This document shows, piece after piece, positions 5,565-18,085 of a stretch of DNA of 35,960 nucleotides; positions within the stretch are counted from its first letter, which is position 1; each line of letters opens with the position of its first letter. The stretch is taken from IMG/VR virus record IMGVR_UViG_2541047842_000004. One strand, 5' to 3'. The position numbers and the translations under genes were made by a program. This DNA comes from a virus. Taxonomy: Duplodnaviria > Heunggongvirae > Uroviricota > Caudoviricetes. The notes below the pieces were generated by a model. The model ran no database searches. It was not told the origin of the DNA and worked only from the letters and a program-made list of their open reading frames with translations.

Positions 5565-7271
<1,707 letters not shown>

Positions 7272-7275
7272 TTAG

Positions 7276-8112: not shown

Positions 8113-9012
8113 TTATTTGATTATTTCTTTTATAAAGACTTCTTTCGGTTGGTATTTTTTATCTGATGATTTGAGCTGGTACGTTATTGTTATATCAGCA
8201 CGTACAGAAAATTTACCTGCAAAATCTGATGGGTTTACGTTGGGGCCAAGAACCATATTTACTCTTCGATCTATTAATCCAGGGATAACAGCAGCCCAAC
8301 CTTTCTCTGGATTGTCGAGGTCTAATGCACGGATTTCAACATCAACATCAAAATGATCCTGAGTATATGACTCTGGTGTGAAGACAACTTCAGTTGGGGC
8401 TTTTTTAATGGTTTCAGCGGGAATGGTCACTGTACCACCCCCTGTACCTATGACCATCGTAGATCCTTCGTCTGCCCTAGCTGGGGCAAGCGTCTTAATG
8501 GAACTTTTGGCAAGAGTCTTCTTATTGGTTACCGTGCTTTCTATGATTGCTTGAAGACGGTCAGGTGAAATATTAGCCTCACCGGCACCAATATTGATGA
8601 TTGTATTGTTATTTGCTTCAAAGTGGGAGGTGTTGCTTGGAGCCATAGCCTTAGTTGCTAGAACTAAGCCATATCCAACCAGACCAATAACAACAGCACC
8701 AACGAGAGCGTTTCTCATTTTCCCATTTCCGATCTTTGCATGAGCGCCAGCAAGAAACTTGTCCATTTCTTCTTGGCTACCAAAGAGGAGTTTAATAACA
8801 ATATCTTCATAAAGGCTTCCTGCTTCTAATCGCGCAACATGCACCGATATATCAAGGATATTAGCCCCTGTCAGTTCCTGCAAAACACCTTCTGATTGTT
8901 TTGCGATGGCCTCCCACCCTTGAAGGGAGGTAATCACATCTTTGATGCTTACAGGTTCTTTAGTTGAATAATATATGTTTTCGGTAAAGGTTAAAGATAA
9001 TTCTTGGGACAT
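8113..9012 (-). CDS. Uncharacterised 299-aa predicted single-pass membrane protein in the rexAB slot downstream of cI (candidate exclusion/defence gene)
   Basis: Long ORF with GAGG Shine-Dalgarno about 6 nt upstream of ATG 9012; one strongly hydrophobic segment near residues 100-124 (ALVGAVVIGLVGYGLVLATKAMA); coding region visibly AT-rich compared with flanking cI and structural genes; followed by a terminator; no match to any protein I can recall. Confidence 0.75.
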   Translation of the reverse strand: MSQELSLTFTENIYYSTKEPVSIKDVITSLQGWEAIAKQSEGVLQELTGANILDISVHVARLEAGSLYEDIVIKLLFGSQEEMDKFLAGAHAKIGNGKMRNALVGAVVIGLVGYGLVLATKAMAPSNTSHFEANNNTIINIGAGEANISPDRLQAIIESTVTNKKTLAKSSIKTLAPARADEGSTMVIGTGGGTVTIPAETIKKAPTEVVFTPESYTQDHFDVDVEIRALDLDNPEKGWAAVIPGLIDRRVNMVLGPNVNPSDFAGKFSVRADITITYQLKSSDKKYQPKEVFIKEIIK

Positions 9013-10261: not shown

Positions 10262-10561
10262 ATGGAACAAACAAATTACAGCAAACTATCACAGCGCGAC
10301 GTTGATCGCGCAGAAACAGATTTACTTATCAACCTGTCAACGCTTACTCAGCGCGGTCTGGCAAAGATGATTGGCTGTCATGAATCGAAGATAAGCAGAA
10401 CAGACTGGAGGTTTATAGCTTCGGTCTTGTGTGCTTTTGGCATGGCATCAGACATCAGTCCGATTAGCAGAGCTTTTAAGTATGCGCTTGATGAAATCAC
10501 CAATAAAAAACGCCCGGTGTGCAAGACCGAGCGTTCTGAACAAATCCAGATGGAGTTCTGA
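10262..10561 (+). CDS. cII: CII-like transcriptional activator (chimeric: divergent N-terminus, lambda-identical C-terminus)
   Basis: 99-aa protein ending ...TNKKRPVCKTERSEQIQMEF, matching the lambda CII C-terminus (…TNKKRPAATERSEQIQMEF); same 33-bp spacing to O as in lambda. Confidence 0.85.
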   Translation: MEQTNYSKLSQRDVDRAETDLLINLSTLTQRGLAKMIGCHESKISRTDWRFIASVLCAFGMASDISPISRAFKYALDEITNKKRPVCKTERSEQIQMEF

Positions 10562-10593
10562 GGTCATTACTGGATCTATCAACAGGAGTCATT

Positions 10594-11493
10594 ATGACAA
10601 ATACAGCAAAAATACTCAACTTCGGCAGAGGTAACTTTGCCGGACAGGAGCGTAATGTGGCAGATCTCGATGATGGTTACGCCAGACTATCAAATATGCT
10701 GCTTGAGGCTTATTCGGGCGCAGATCTGACCAAGCGACAGTTTAAAGTGCTGCTTGCCATTCTGCGTAAAACCTATGGGTGGAATAAACCAATGGACAGA
10801 ATCACCGATTCTCAACTTAGCGAGATTACAAAGTTACCTGTCAAACGGTGCAATGAAGCCAAGTTAGAACTCGTCAGAATGAATATTATCAAGCAGCAAG
10901 GCGGCATGTTTGGACCAAACAAAAACATCTCAGAATGGTGCATCCCTCAAAACGAGGGAAAATCCCCTAAAACGAGGGATAAAACATCCCTCAAATTGGG
11001 GGATTGCTATCCCTCAAAACAGGGGGACACAAAAGACACTATTACAAAAGAAAAAAGAAAAGATTATTCGTCCGAGAATTCTGGCGAATCCTCTGACCAG
11101 CCAGAAAACGATCTTTCTGTGGTTAAACCGGATGCTGCAATTCAGAGCGGCAGTAAGTGGGGAACAGCAGAAGACCTGACCGCCGCAGAGTGGATGTTTG
11201 ACATGGTGAAGACCATCGCGCCATCAGCCAGAAAACCGAATTTTGCTGGGTGGGCTAACGATATCCGCCTGATGCGTGAACGTGACGGACGTAACCACCG
11301 CGATATGTGTGTGCTTTTCCGCTGGGCCTGCCAGGACAACTTCTGGTCCGGTAACGTGCTGAGTCCGGCCAAACTCCGCGACAAGTGGACCCAGCTCGAA
11401 ATCAACCGTAACAAGCAACAGGCTGGCGTGACAGCCGGAAAACCAAAACTCGACCTGACAAACACTGACTGGATTTACGGGGTGGATCTATGA
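10594..11493 (+). CDS. O: Replication initiator protein O
   Basis: 299-aa product MTNTAKILNFGRGNFAGQERNVADLDDGYARLSNMLLEAY... matches lambda O; contains the ori iterons internally. Confidence 0.97.
   Translation: MTNTAKILNFGRGNFAGQERNVADLDDGYARLSNMLLEAYSGADLTKRQFKVLLAILRKTYGWNKPMDRITDSQLSEITKLPVKRCNEAKLELVRMNIIKQQGGMFGPNKNISEWCIPQNEGKSPKTRDKTSLKLGDCYPSKQGDTKDTITKEKRKDYSSENSGESSDQPENDLSVVKPDAAIQSGSKWGTAEDLTAAEWMFDMVKTIAPSARKPNFAGWANDIRLMRERDGRNHRDMCVLFRWACQDNFWSGNVLSPAKLRDKWTQLEINRNKQQAGVTAGKPKLDLTNTDWIYGVDL
10941..11065 (+). repeat. ori-lambda: four ~19-bp iterons followed by an AT-rich unwinding region, inside gene O
   Basis: Iterons atccctcaaaacgaggga (10942), atcccctaaaacgagggat (10962), atccctcaaattgggggat (10986), atccctcaaaacaggggga (11009), then an A-rich tract (…caaaagaaaaaagaaaagattatt). 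Confidence 0.85.
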
Positions 11494-12191
11494 AAAACAT
11501 CGCCGCACAGATGGTTAACTTTGACCGTGAGCAGATGCGTCGGATCGCCAACAACATGCCGGAACAGTACGACGAAAAGCCACAGGTACAGCAGGTAGCG
11601 CAGATCATCAACGGTGTGTTCAGCCAGTTACTGGCAACTTTCCCGGCGAGCCTGGCTAACCGTGACCAGAACGAACTGAACGAAATCCGCCGCCAGTGGG
11701 TTCTGGCTTTCCGGGAAAACGGGATCACCACAATGGAACAGGTTAACGCAGGAATGCGCGTAGCCCGTCGGCAGAATCGACCATTTCTGCCATCACCCGG
11801 GCAGTTTGTTGCATGGTGCCGGGAAGAAGCATCCGTTATCGCCGGACTGCCAAACGTCAGCGAGCTGGTTGATATGGTTTACGAGTATTGCCGGAAGCGA
11901 GGCCTGTATCCGGATGCGGAGTCTTATCCGTGGAAATCAAATGCGCACTACTGGCTGGTTACCAACCTGTATCAGAACATGCGGGCCAATGCGCTTACTG
12001 ATGCGGAATTACGCCGTAAGGCCGCAGATGAGCTTGTCCATATGACTGCGAGAATTAACCGTGGTGAGGCGATCCCTGAACCAGTAAAACAACTTCCTGT
12101 CATGGGCGGTAGACCTCTAAATCGTGCACAGGCTCTGGCGAAGATCGCAGAAATCAAAGCTAAGTTCGGACTGAAAGGAGCAAGTGTATGA
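11490..12191 (+). CDS. P: Replication protein P (DnaB helicase loader)
   Basis: 233-aa product MKNIAAQMVNFDREQMRRIANNMPEQYDEKPQVQQVAQIINGVFSQLLATFP... matches lambda P; 4-nt overlap with O. Confidence 0.97.
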   Translation: MKNIAAQMVNFDREQMRRIANNMPEQYDEKPQVQQVAQIINGVFSQLLATFPASLANRDQNELNEIRRQWVLAFRENGITTMEQVNAGMRVARRQNRPFLPSPGQFVAWCREEASVIAGLPNVSELVDMVYEYCRKRGLYPDAESYPWKSNAHYWLVTNLYQNMRANALTDAELRRKAADELVHMTARINRGEAIPEPVKQLPVMGGRPLNRAQALAKIAEIKAKFGLKGASV

Positions 12192-12478
12192 CGGGCAAAG
12201 AGGCAATTATTCATTACCTGGGGACGCATAATAGCTTCTGTGCGCCGGACGTTGCCGCGCTAACAGGCGCAACAGTAACCAGCATAAATCAGGCCGCGGC
12301 TAAAATGGCACGGGCAGGTCTTCTGGTTATCGAAGGTAAGGTCTGGCGAACGGTGTATTACCGGTTTGCTACCAGGGAAGAACGGGAAGGAAAGATGAGC
12401 ACGAACCTGATTTTCAAGGAGTGTCGCCAGAGTGCCGCGATGAAACGGGTATTGGCGGTATATGGAGTTAAAAGATGA
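12188..12478 (+). CDS. ren: Ren (Rex exclusion escape protein)
   Basis: 96-aa product MTGKEAIIHYLGTHNSFCAPDVAALTGATVTSINQAAAKMARAGLLV... matches lambda Ren. Confidence 0.9.
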   Translation: MTGKEAIIHYLGTHNSFCAPDVAALTGATVTSINQAAAKMARAGLLVIEGKVWRTVYYRFATREEREGKMSTNLIFKECRQSAAMKRVLAVYGVKR

Positions 12479-12551
12479 CCATCTACATTACTGAGCTAAT
12501 AACAGGCCTGCTGGTAATCGCAGGCCTTTTTATTTGGGGGAGAGGGAAGTC

Positions 12552-12992
12552 ATGAAAAAACTAACCTTTGAAATTCGATCTCCAGCACATCAGCAAAACG
12601 CTATTCACGCAGTACAGCAAATCCTTCCAGACCCAACCAAACCAATCGTAGTAACCATTCAGGAACGCAACCGCAGCTTAGACCAAAACAGGAAGCTATG
12701 GGCCTGCTTAGGTGACGTCTCTCGTCAGGTTGAATGGCATGGTCGCTGGCTGGATGCAGAAAGCTGGAAGTGTGTGTTTACCGCAGCATTAAAGCAGCAG
12801 GATGTTGTTCCTAACCTTGCCGGGAATGGCTTTGTGGTAATAGGCCAGTCAACCAGCAGGATGCGTGTAGGCGAATTTGCGGAGCTATTAGAGCTTATAC
12901 AGGCATTCGGTACAGAGCGTGGCGTTAAGTGGTCAGACGAAGCGAGACTGGCTCTGGAGTGGAAAGCGAGATGGGGAGATCGGGCTGCATGA
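12552..12992 (+). CDS. ninB: NinB (Orf recombination protein)
   Basis: 146-aa product from MKKLTFEIRSPAHQQNAIHAVQQILPDPTKP..., matching lambda NinB; the longer track ORF starts upstream. Confidence 0.9.
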   Translation: MKKLTFEIRSPAHQQNAIHAVQQILPDPTKPIVVTIQERNRSLDQNRKLWACLGDVSRQVEWHGRWLDAESWKCVFTAALKQQDVVPNLAGNGFVVIGQSTSRMRVGEFAELLELIQAFGTERGVKWSDEARLALEWKARWGDRAA

Positions 12993-13516
12993 CTATCAAA
13001 TCAAATACGCCAGCACACGACAAGGACTGCTGGCAAACGCCGCTTTGGCTTTTTGATGCACTGGATATTGAGTTTGGATTCTGGCTGGATTCGGCAGCGA
13101 GCGACAAAAATGCTCTGTGTGCTCACTGGCTAACTGAGGCCGACGACGCGCTCAATTCTGAGTGGGTAAGCCACGGTGCAATCTGGAATAACCCACCGTA
13201 CAGCAATATCAGGCCGTGGGTGGAAAAAGCCGCTGAGCAGTGCATACAACAGCGACAGACGGTAGTTATGCTTGTGCCAGAGGATATGTCAGTCGGATGG
13301 TTCAGCAAGGCTCTGGAGAGTGTCGACGAAGTTCGCATTATCACTGATGGACGGATTAATTTTATCGAACCATCGACAGGGCTGGAGAAGAAGGGAAACA
13401 GCAAAGGCTCCATGCTGCTGATTTGGCGACCGTTCATCAGTCCTCGACGGATGTTTACTACCGTATCCAAAGCGGCATTGATGGCGATCGGGCAGGGCGT
13501 CAGGAGGGCGGCATGA
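12989..13516 (+). CDS. Phage DNA N6-adenine methyltransferase (Dam-like orphan MTase)
   Basis: 175-aa product from [30 protein letters not shown]... with a catalytic (D/N)PPY-type motif (WNNPPYSN); occupies the lambda ninC position. Confidence 0.8.
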
Positions 13517-13689
13517 GGCGACAGCGACGAAGTTTCACCGACATCATCTGCGAAAACTGCAAATACCTTCCAACGAAACGCTCCAGAAATAAACGCAAGC
13601 CAATCCCAAAAGAATCTGACGTAAAAACCTTCAATTACACAGCTCACCTGTGGGATATCCGGTGGCTAAGATATCGTGCGAGGAAATGA
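13513..13689 (+). CDS. ninE: NinE-like protein
   Basis: 58-aa product [58 protein letters not shown] resembles lambda NinE; ATGA overlap with the preceding gene. Confidence 0.7.
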
Positions 13690-14033
13690 CAATGGATTAT
13701 TCACAGTTAAGTGATTTTGAAATTAACAGAATGGTAGGAGACATAATTTTTAAAGGCCTTTGGGCAAGTAAACCGGAAACATCAGGGAATAACACCAACA
13801 AATGGTATTACGGAAATGCTGATACAACTTTTGAGCCATTAAATCATTTGCCTGACTACTGCAATGATCCGAGCGCTTCATGGCCGATTATTGAGAAATA
13901 CAGGATTTCTATCTTAGACCAGTTAACTGAATGGTGTGTGGATGCAAAAGGCGTAAGCCCAATATTTGATACCAGACCTCTCCGCGCCGCCATTATTGTC
14001 TTTCTCCTGATGCAGGAGGCCAATAATGCTTAG
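13686..14033 (+). CDS. Hypothetical nin-region protein (possibly NinX-like)
   Basis: About 116 aa from [26 protein letters not shown]...; ATGA-type overlap with ninE; family not recognised with confidence. Confidence 0.55.
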
Positions 14034-14243
14034 CCCATCTCAATCCCTTCAATACCTGAAAGGAAGCATAGAGCGGGCTTCAATGTGCACAGAGTGGATT
14101 CTATCTAGGTTTAGCGCATACAGAAGATTGCCGGTAAAGGGCATGCCAAGCAAGTCGATGCTGCATATGCAAAAGAATGCGCGCGGGAAGGTATGGCGAG
14201 AACGCAGGTTATCTGGCTGAAAGAGGGGGTAATTAAGGCGTGA
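14026..14243 (+). pseudogene. Probable recombination scar: NinF-like 5' fragment joined out of frame to a ybcO-like (DUF1364) 3' fragment
   Basis: Frame from 14026 begins [19 protein letters not shown] (NinF-like N-terminus as recalled) then diverges; a different frame ends ...[31 protein letters not shown], resembling the YbcO C-terminus, with stop at 14241-14243 overlapping the rusA start. Confidence 0.4.
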
Positions 14244-15358: not shown

Positions 15359-15883
15359 TTATTGTTTGACCCATAATAGTTCATTGACATTGAATCCCAA
15401 TTTTTGAGCAGTACGCACATAGTCTGCTTTTACATTATCTGGAATAGTTGGAGTCCGTGCCAGAATCCATAGGTATTCTCTGTTCGGACCACTGACAAGA
15501 GCATACTTATACTCATCATCCAGTTTGATTACATTATAGCCACCATAGAAGGGGCCAAAAAACGAAACCTTCAACGCTGCAGTTGTATTATCTCCTGTAA
15601 AGTATGCTTTACCTTCGCTCTCGCTCCATTTGTTTTTCGTTGGGTCATATCCACGATTAAGTACACTAATCCCTCCGTCGTTCCGTTTCCCATAAGTGGC
15701 GCTGACCTGTTCCAGACCACGTTCAAATCGGTTCTCAAGCCGAGCTATTTCATACCATTTTCCGAGGTAGCGGTTGGTGTCAAAATTTGTAATCGGCTGC
15801 ACACCTTTAGGTGGTGTCGGGGCCTTACATGCTATCAGAGTGAAAGAGAGTGCAATGCCAGTCAACACAGGCCATAACTTCAT
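15359..15883 (-). CDS. blc: Bacterial lipocalin (Blc-like outer-membrane lipoprotein)
   Basis: 174-aa product with a lipoprotein signal peptide and lipobox (LIAC) and lipocalin motifs (GKWYEIARLENRFERG, YFTGDNTTAALKVSFFGPFYGGYNVI); resembles E. coli Blc. Confidence 0.85.
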   Translation of the reverse strand: MKLWPVLTGIALSFTLIACKAPTPPKGVQPITNFDTNRYLGKWYEIARLENRFERGLEQVSATYGKRNDGGISVLNRGYDPTKNKWSESEGKAYFTGDNTTAALKVSFFGPFYGGYNVIKLDDEYKYALVSGPNREYLWILARTPTIPDNVKADYVRTAQKLGFNVNELLWVKQ

Positions 15884-16075
15884 AATATATCCTGTACTTT
15901 TGATAGTTGAGAGTAAGTATTAAAGATAGATGATTACTACCGATCACCTAAAGAACTTTCCTACTATATTAGGAATAGTCCATAACAAAAAAATTGTCAG
16001 TGATGACGGCAGAAAGGCAGTTTAGGTCGTGTACTACACTGTTAACCTGTTAATGAATTAGTCAAGGGGTAGGCA

Positions 16076-17035
16076 ATGATAAAAAAACCTGTCGTTGGGA
16101 TCAGTGGTTGTTTGGCCGGTTCTTCTGTCCGTTTTGATGGTGGTCACAAAAGAGCTAGCTTTTTAATGGACAAATTACTGGAATGGGTAACATTCAAACC
16201 AGTATGTCCGGAAATGGCTATAGGGCTTCCAGTTCCGCGTCCTGCTCTACGTCTTGTTCGCTCGGCGCAAGGAAATATACGGATGTGTTTCAGCCACGAC
16301 CAGAATGAGGATGTTACAGAGAAAATGACAGAGTTTAGTCGTTCTTATCTTGACAAATTAAAGGATGTATCGGGATTTGTGGTTTGTGCAAAATCTCCTA
16401 GCTGTGGTATGGAACGCGTGCGTGTATATGATGAAAATGGTAATCGTGGTCGTAAAGATGGAGTGGGACTATTTACGAGCACGTTGATGGAAAGGTTTTC
16501 CTGGCTACCGGTTGAAGAGGATGGGCGACTACATGATCCAGTGCTTCGTGAAAACTTTGTTGAAAGAGTATTTGCTTTACATGAGCTCAATCATCTTTAT
16601 AAAGCGAAATTATCAAGAAGGGAATTATTAGCTTTTCATAGCCGTTATAAGCTTCAGTTGTTGGCGCATAGCCAGGCCGGTTATAAAGAGATGGGGCCAT
16701 TTGTGGCTGCAATACATGAGTGGGCAGACCTTGAATCATACTTTGAGGTGTATCGTGAGAAGCTGATGGCGATTCTCAGAAAACCTGCATCACGTAAAAA
16801 TCACACGAATGTGCTGATGCATATACAGGGATATTTTAGTAACTGCTTAAATACACGTCAGCGTAAAGAGTTGAGCGATGTTATACTTAACTATCGAGCT
16901 GGCACGCTACCTCTTCTTGCGCCATTAACTTTGCTGAAGCATTACTTGGCAGAGTATCCTGATGATTATTTGCTTATACAGAATTACTTCCACCCCTATC
17001 CTGATGAACTGGCTCTAAGACTCTTGGTGAACTAG
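16076..17035 (+). CDS. DUF523 (TudS-like Cys-rich domain) fused to DUF1722 (YbgA-like) protein
   Basis: 319-aa product; N-terminal conserved cysteines (GISGCLAG..., PVCPEMAIGLP..., CAKSPSCGMERV) and a C-terminal YbgA-like region (…FHSRYKLQLLAHSQ…HTNVLMHIQGYF…). Domain assignment is by recollection. Confidence 0.75.
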   Translation: MIKKPVVGISGCLAGSSVRFDGGHKRASFLMDKLLEWVTFKPVCPEMAIGLPVPRPALRLVRSAQGNIRMCFSHDQNEDVTEKMTEFSRSYLDKLKDVSGFVVCAKSPSCGMERVRVYDENGNRGRKDGVGLFTSTLMERFSWLPVEEDGRLHDPVLRENFVERVFALHELNHLYKAKLSRRELLAFHSRYKLQLLAHSQAGYKEMGPFVAAIHEWADLESYFEVYREKLMAILRKPASRKNHTNVLMHIQGYFSNCLNTRQRKELSDVILNYRAGTLPLLAPLTLLKHYLAEYPDDYLLIQNYFHPYPDELALRLLVN

Positions 17036-17344
17036 GCGTTTGGAATGCACCAACAAGATGATTTTCTCCTTAGAGAATGTTTACAATCGTAAAAACTTCA
17101 CTATGATATCTATAGTTGTACAGTTTGTAAAAAAATTCGGTTCATGCTTAAGGTAATGTTAATATGTTAATTAATGATTAATAATCAAGCAAGCCAAAAA
17201 TAGTTCTGTTTAATCTAGTATTACATAAATATTTTAAAGAAAATATCAAAGTTCATGATGATATAATGAGATTTTTCTCATTGAAAATATGGCAATTTTA
17301 ATATTTCCACCTATACTTACTTAACTCAAATCTAATTATGTCAG

Positions 17345-18085
17345 GTGGATGGTATGCCATGCATATGTTCTATCATTTTGGTTTTGAACTCGTTTGATAT
17401 CCGGCTTGGTAAAGAAAAAATCTCTCTAAAAAAAGGAAGTGTTGTTGCTATAGAATACAATTTAAAAGTTTTCTTTTCTTCAAATAAAGATAATATAATG
17501 ATCGTGGATATTGAAGAGAAAACAGTTAATGACTTCTTTAAAAACAATACACTCTCACCTTTTTCTGTAAGAAGATTTTATTCAGCATACTTGATAGTAA
17601 ACTGTACAGACTATTCATTGTTAAAGAACTTGATAGGTTGCTTGAATTGTGATGGTGAAACTACGGCTGTAGTTAAAAATTCAATATTATTTGCATGTCT
17701 TGCTATTTTATCCTCGGAAAAAATGTTTCAGAGTTTTTTGTTTGGGTGTCTTAATAGTTTAGGAAGCAAAGTTAAGGCTATTATTCACTCGGACATATCT
17801 GCAGCATGGAGACTTTGTGATATTTCTTCAAGACTATGTCTGAGTGAAAGTTTGTTAAAAAGAAAACTAAAACACGAAGGCTTATCATTTAGCAAATTAA
17901 TTCTTGAAGAACGAATGGTGATGGCTGAAAGGTTATTAAGCTACAATTTCTATCCTGTTGGGAAAGTTGCTAAAATATGTGGTTATGAAAGCGCGTCATA
18001 TTTTATAAGTGTTTTCAGAAGATATTTTGGTGTTCCCCCCCATGAATATTCATCAAGATTTTTTTTAGAAAAAGGCAAGATGTAA
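17345..18085 (+). CDS. AraC/XylS-family transcriptional regulator (AppY/EnvY/Rns-like), start uncertain
   Basis: C-terminal AraC-type double HTH (…LCLSESLLKRKLKHEGLSFSKLILEERMVMAERLL… KVAKICGYESASYFISVFRRYFGVPPHEY); very AT-rich gene preceded by ~300 bp of AT-rich non-coding DNA. Confidence 0.75.
   Translation: MDGMPCICSIILVLNSFDIRLGKEKISLKKGSVVAIEYNLKVFFSSNKDNIMIVDIEEKTVNDFFKNNTLSPFSVRRFYSAYLIVNCTDYSLLKNLIGCLNCDGETTAVVKNSILFACLAILSSEKMFQSFLFGCLNSLGSKVKAIIHSDISAAWRLCDISSRLCLSESLLKRKLKHEGLSFSKLILEERMVMAERLLSYNFYPVGKVAKICGYESASYFISVFRRYFGVPPHEYSSRFFLEKGKM

Follow-up and report, generated by a model that had tools for sequence, protein, structure and literature searches.

A small Dam methyltransferase gene with a product identical to M.EcoVT2Dam in the nin region of a lambda-like prophage

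The closest described relative of the gene analysed here encodes M.EcoVT2Dam, the dam product (BAA94133.1) of the Shiga-toxin phage VT2-Sakai, the cloning of which is credited to Radlinska & Bujnicki 2001 (PMID 11720311) in a passage of PMC7556043. M.EcoVT2Dam has been termed an orphan MTase, a classification based on REBASE, with GATC as its known target, and no attributable motif besides GATC was detected for its copies (PMC6602927). HP1 Dam (Haemophilus phage HP1 orf13, 173 aa) and T1 Dam (coliphage T1 ST20) are likewise encoded by orphan genes, located among early or replication functions. Phage T1 is virulent, and its DNA is reportedly adenine-methylated at GATC sites (PMC11447400). Two other groups of enzymes have been associated with GATC. 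E. coli Dam, T4 Dam and DpnM are alpha-class enzymes of the PF02086 family with a DPPY motif. E. coli Dam is a protein of 278 aa, and it contains an inserted target-recognition domain. M.EcoGV and M.EcoPA8orf6770P, MT-A70-like 'Dam homologues' of Stx prophages, are prophage-borne orphans also listed as GATC enzymes; they carry a DPPW motif, have METTL3 and METTL14 as closest structural homologues and are encoded at the left end of the prophage (PMC10810198). The Stx-prophage 'Dam homologue' was reported in the same work to be a 16S rRNA methyltransferase needing a partner. According to the EcoSal review, packaging (in P1) and protection are known roles of other phage Dam enzymes.

The gene described here is carried by the virus record IMGVR_UViG_2541047842_000004, a stretch of 35,960 nucleotides referred to as the window. 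Its position is familiar from phage lambda, in which ninC (41081-41953) begins four bases before the end of ninB (40644-41084), start and stop overlapping as ATGA, and encodes a phosphoadenosine phosphosulfate reductase-like protein of 290 aa. In the window, this slot is taken by dam, a plus-strand ORF coding for a 175-aa protein that is unrelated to lambda NinC in sequence and predicted function and has no PAPS-reductase match in Pfam. The start codon of dam (ATG, 12989-12991) shares bases with the ninB stop codon (TGA, 12990-12992), again forming ATGA, and its own stop codon (TGA, 13514-13516) shares bases with the ninE start (ATG at 13513) in a second ATGA. The original prediction of a 175-aa ORF overlapping the ninB stop at the ninC start position agrees with these coordinates and with those of lambda, where ninC starts at 41081 and ninB ends at 41084. 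The features of the locus are the following:

12504-12535, plus strand: terminator-like hairpin with a T-run, upstream of ninB (terminator scan).
12552-12992, plus strand: ninB (orf), recombination mediator gene (PF05772, E 2.3e-54; collinear with lambda ninB 40644-41084).
12989-13516, plus strand: dam coding sequence (ORF, PF05869, TIGR01712, PHROG 111, identity to BAA94133.1).
12993-13519, no strand: mosaic cassette of 527 bp (blastn against lambda).
13031-13042, plus strand: W15-Q-T-P18, N-terminal W/x-T-P element of dam, T17 and P18 invariant (window protein, HP1 Dam, T1 Dam, enterobacterial homologues).
13085-13102, plus strand: L33-D-S-A-A-S38, motif I-like LDxAA of dam, with L33, D34 and A37 invariant (sequence and alignments).
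13187-13201, plus strand: N67-N-P-P-Y71, catalytic motif IV (NPPY) of dam (sequence, alignments).
13349-13408, plus strand: dam codons 121-140, a loop between model strands E114-119 and E141-146 (invariant columns, AlphaFold2 model).
13513-13689, plus strand: ninE (PF05322, E 3.4e-42; sequence).

Profile searches assigned the dam product to a curated family. The PF05869 profile, DNA N-6-adenine-methyltransferase (Dam), matched residues 4-169 over profile positions 1-167 of 169 with 218 bits against a cut-off of 28.1 (E 6.4e-65), and the NCBIfam equivalog TIGR01712, phage N-6-adenine-methyltransferase, was matched from end to end (positions 1-165 of 165) with 266 bits against a cut-off of 97.05 (E 9.7e-80). 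A match to PHROG 111 was also obtained. With E-values of this order the ORF is judged not to be due to chance, and its product belongs, by profile matches covering its full length, to the small phage Dam family (HP1/T1/VT-2). Searches for the profiles of the other two groups gave no match: neither PF02086, the family of E. coli and T4 Dam, nor MT-A70 was found in Pfam at E<=0.01 for the 175-aa protein or at E<=1 for a 195-aa form. The DPPY motif and the inserted helical target-recognition domain of PF02086 enzymes are both absent from the dam protein, which carries NPPY. The description 'Dam-like' consequently stands for the predicted function and falls for the family, which is PF05869 and not PF02086.

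The 195-aa form, which would start at an in-frame GTG (12929), was rejected: its PF05869 match begins at residue 24, equivalent to residue 4 of the ATG form, and both the homologues and the public annotations of dam begin at the ATG. An antisense ORF of 174 aa (13123-13647) had a match to Tat as its sole hit (E 0.023, below the cut-off) and was treated as a shadow ORF. Several entries in public collections (hits P0002, P0005, P0011, P0013, P0022 and P0087; 200-240 aa) show Dam as an apparent fusion with NinE, NinB, RusA, Q or further domains from the neighbourhood. These fusions are probably frameshift or gene-calling artefacts, because the gene overlaps its neighbours by ATGA at both ends.

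The catalytic-type motif NNPPY announced by the original prediction is read at codons 67-71 of dam (aat aac cca ccg tac). In alignments with 31 homologues and with HP1 and T1 Dam, residues N68, P69, P70, Y71 and S72 are invariant. A narrower alignment of the window protein, HP1 Dam, T1 Dam and four enterobacterial homologues adds T17-P18, L33-D34, A37 and W66 to N68-P-P-Y-S72, as well as R122, F125, T130-G131, N137 and K139. The proteins of HP1 and T1 are 38% and 33% identical to that of the window, respectively, and share with it the NPPY, LDxAA and T-P elements along with R122 and F125; HP1 Dam is of similar size, whereas T1 Dam is extended at its N-terminus by about 45 residues and contains an insertion of 14. 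Homologues with 60-87% identity occur in Pectobacterium, Serratia, Edwardsiella, Yersinia, Providencia, Photorhabdus and others. The comparison with family profiles that had been suggested, together with a check for missing catalytic or SAM-binding residues, found every family-invariant residue in place. By analogy with gamma-class MTases such as M.TaqI and HsdM, LDxAA may represent an AdoMet-binding, motif I-like element; the N-terminal W/x-T-P element, which we take to be motif X of gamma-type MTases, is tentatively assigned to AdoMet binding as well. N6-adenine chemistry would follow from family membership and the NPPY motif.

Direct alignment of the window protein with M.EcoVT2Dam showed 175 of 175 residues to be identical, and in tblastn both VT2-Sakai records gave 100% identity over all 175 residues. 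The two genes also share the slot between ninB and ninE and the same four-base overlaps. The backbones differ: in the window, dam belongs to a lambda-like, non-Stx prophage of the Lambda_ev110 / 1H12 type (Jouyvirus), in which O, P and ren are of the lambda type, while the region ahead of ninB in VT2-Sakai holds other genes, with a P that is HK022-like. The target specificity, given as unknown in the original prediction, can be taken from the identical enzyme, which is stated to target GATC (PMC6602927). By this secondary citation for an identical protein, the window enzyme would methylate the adenine of GATC. Cloned and overexpressed phage enzymes can overstate GATC specificity, a caution raised for a different enzyme (PMC10810198).

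GATC itself is under-represented in the window as a whole, with 107 sites where dinucleotide-preserving shuffles predict 148 +/- 9. All 100 shuffles contained at least 107 sites; the observation is of note as the phage carries its own GATC methylase.

The small size of the protein raises the question of how its target is recognised. Compared with E. coli Dam, which spans 243 residues in chain 2ore_D, it lacks about 100 residues, and with 175 aa it leaves no room for a separate target-recognition domain. An AlphaFold2 model of the dam protein built from 31 homologues (mean pLDDT 74, pTM 0.76) is of low confidence over residues 30-70, which correspond to motifs I to IV and include residues 34-36. 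The dam protein is predicted to adopt a class I AdoMet-dependent methyltransferase fold, and the structural neighbours of the model are gamma-type enzymes (M.TaqI, HsdM, CamA), not Dam. The window enzyme appears to be a convergent GATC methylase. The loop of residues 121-140 holds the invariant R122, F125, T130, G131, N137 and K139 and could be a DNA-contact element, the protein being too short to accommodate a separate recognition domain. It is conceivable, at long odds, that the enzyme does not read GATC alone but needs a partner, such as the translationally coupled NinE or a second copy of itself in a homodimer, or that it has a second, non-DNA substrate, like the unrelated Stx-prophage 'Dam homologue'. 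Searching the PDB with the single sequence and with the family profile returned no solved PF05869 member, all matches being chance ones with E >= 0.2; the family is widespread in phages, yet has no structure detectable there by either route.

Comparison with lambda by blastn delimited the replaced segment precisely. Window positions 10497-12992 correspond to lambda 38592-41084 with 98.7% identity, a block that ends exactly at the ninB stop; similarity resumes inside ninE, where 13520-13686 corresponds to lambda 42097-42263 (95.2%), and no similarity to lambda was found by blastn between 12992 and 13520. A cassette of 527 bp thus stands for 1012 bp of lambda (41085-42096), comprising ninC, ninD and the ninE reading frame up to its seventh base. 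That dam replaces ninC was correct as to position, the replacement in fact covering ninC and ninD together. As read from these alignments, such an exchange with breakpoints at gene boundaries is ordinary lambdoid mosaicism. Upstream of ninB lie the gene for replication protein P and a ren-sized ORF, and downstream of ninE follow NinX, RusA and the Q antiterminator. A small ORF (14026-14220, 64 aa) is also among the neighbours of dam and, like NinE and NinX, has no known function. According to Pfam the neighbours are NinB, NinE, NinX, RusA and Q, which bears out the statement that no restriction endonuclease gene is adjacent; with the PF05869/TIGR01712 membership and NPPY, the proposal of an orphan N6-adenine methyltransferase is upheld.

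Judged by database matches, the gene is already known and very common, its annotation recurring in hundreds of phage entries. Of 50,697 phage records searched by tblastn, 1908 contained a relative, and in 244 of these the identity was at least 95%. Many sequenced lambdoid coliphages carry the same DNA with 100% identity, and the ninB-dam-ninE-ninX stretch is 98-100% identical in dozens of phages. Among complete E. coli genomes, 1566 of 5426 contain dam, with up to 5 copies per genome, under the PGAP name "phage N-6-adenine-methyltransferase".

One insertion aside, positions 1-20505 of the window match isolated coliphages of the Lambda_ev110 / 1H12 type (Jouyvirus) with 100% identity. The gene order runs through int/xis, recombination genes, N, cI, cro, O, P, the nin region, Q and the lysis genes to about 20505, where the matching phage records end, and the large plus-strand ORFs beyond this point are taken to be head and tail (morphogenesis) genes. 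Because this is the order of an integrated prophage, a bacterial chromosome is a more probable source of the window than a virion assembly.

Several other features of this prophage deserve mention. The insertion, which is the sole difference from Lambda_ev110 over positions 1-20505, is an IS5 element of 1195 bp (6077-7271) flanked by a TTAG target duplication (6073-6076 and 7272-7275) and containing an ORF (6109-7125) for a DDE transposase of 338 aa. It truncates a sieB-like superinfection-exclusion gene, which spans 5565-6104 here against 5565-6146 in Lambda_ev110. An apparent cargo block (15359-18085) between Q and the lysis genes, with the same genes in the identical isolated phages, encodes a Blc-type lipocalin lipoprotein (15359-15883, minus strand), a YbgA-like protein containing 2-thiouracil desulfurase and DUF1722 domains (16076-17035) and a regulator of the AraC family (17345-18085). 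A minus-strand ORF of 299 aa (8113-9012), annotated as 'hypothetical protein' in Lambda_ev110 and lying between N and cI, where lambda has rexA/rexB, had no Pfam match at E<=0.001; it could be an exclusion or defence gene expressed in the lysogen.

The position of dam also suggests when it would be expressed. The hairpin at 12504-12535 lies within the 98.7% block common with lambda, at the position of lambda tR2. We take it to be tR2 and assume its dependence on N from what is established for lambda. Since dam lies downstream of this tR2-like terminator, it would fall in the antitermination-dependent part of the rightward operon. The window encodes N, cI, O and P. No promoter-like site was found between the hairpin and the dam start, and the count of such sites in the region did not exceed the shuffled expectation.

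These elements can be assembled into a proposed mechanism. The enzyme would be an orphan AdoMet-dependent DNA N6-adenine methyltransferase acting on the adenine of GATC, encoded by a gene that is presumably translationally coupled in a ninB-dam-ninE run. By analogy with lambda, dam would be silent in the lysogen and, after induction or infection, would be expressed as a delayed-early gene through N antitermination. Methylation of lambda DNA obtained from dam+ cells is incomplete. The most likely role of the phage Dam would be to top up limited host Dam during fast phage replication, in such a way that packaged genomes would be fully GATC-methylated. Full methylation could protect them from DpnII/MboI-type nucleases, which cut unmethylated GATC, and could keep MutH from nicking them, be it in the next host or in the course of recombination; where the host has little Dam or none, the phage's own enzyme would keep its DNA methylated. 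Taken as a whole, an orphan, delayed-early GATC methylase supplementing host Dam is the best explanation, to which we give a probability of roughly 0.8. The anti-restriction or epigenetic function put forward originally is plausible. The benefit of a second GATC methylase in E. coli, which already has Dam, is not obvious, and our literature search found no report on the phenotype of a lambdoid or Stx phage dam gene, the papers retrieved dealing with host Dam or other methyltransferases.

Other explanations of the gene were weighed against this one. Orphan prophage methyltransferases can alter host methylomes and expression according to reviews, and dam is very common in E. coli chromosomes, so that the gene might be expressed from the prophage and serve chiefly to regulate the host or lysogeny epigenetically, instead of modifying progeny DNA in the lytic cycle. 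A second GATC methylase would create no new motif in a dam+ host, however, and the copies of M.EcoVT2Dam gave none besides GATC (PMC6602927); moreover, no promoter-like site immediately precedes dam, which lies behind a terminator-like hairpin in a repressed rightward operon. A mainly regulatory role is therefore considered unlikely. Distinctly unlikely is the view that the real substrate is not GATC DNA but RNA, or a different or looser motif, perhaps read with a partner, GATC methylation being an overexpression artefact. A precedent exists in the Stx-prophage 'Dam homologue' reported as a 16S rRNA methyltransferase (PMC10810198), but from a different family (DPPW, METTL3-like). Identity of that gene with the one in the window was itself considered and ruled out: it encodes a METTL3-like DPPW protein at the left prophage end, whereas the window protein carries NPPY and matches PF05869 only.

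The possibility that dam is an inactive remnant, with motifs kept and function lost, draws on the frequent decay of prophage genes and on the IS5 insertion elsewhere in this prophage. It is very improbable in view of a full-length product identical to the cloned VT2-Sakai enzyme, with all family-invariant residues present, and of the same sequence being found in viable, isolated phages. Finally, NinE, NinX and the 64-aa ORF could in principle conceal a nuclease with which dam, as the modification half, would form a restriction-modification system. The chance of this is close to nil: the neighbours are standard nin-region families found with or without dam (lambda has ninE and no dam), RusA is a Holliday-junction resolvase family protein, cutting unmethylated GATC would be pointless in dam+ hosts, and M.EcoVT2Dam has been called an orphan MTase (PMC6602927).

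An orphan GATC methylase supplementing host Dam thus remains the preferred reading of this locus. For annotation, its value lies in a clean cassette exchange, dam for ninC and ninD, with ATGA at both junctions. For the family, it presents a structural puzzle, namely how four-base specificity is obtained from so small a methyltransferase. For the biology of the phages, it asks why many coliphages of Dam-positive hosts keep a GATC methylase in the nin region, to which topping up of host methylation, protection from nucleases or MutH, and growth in Dam-poor hosts may be possible answers.
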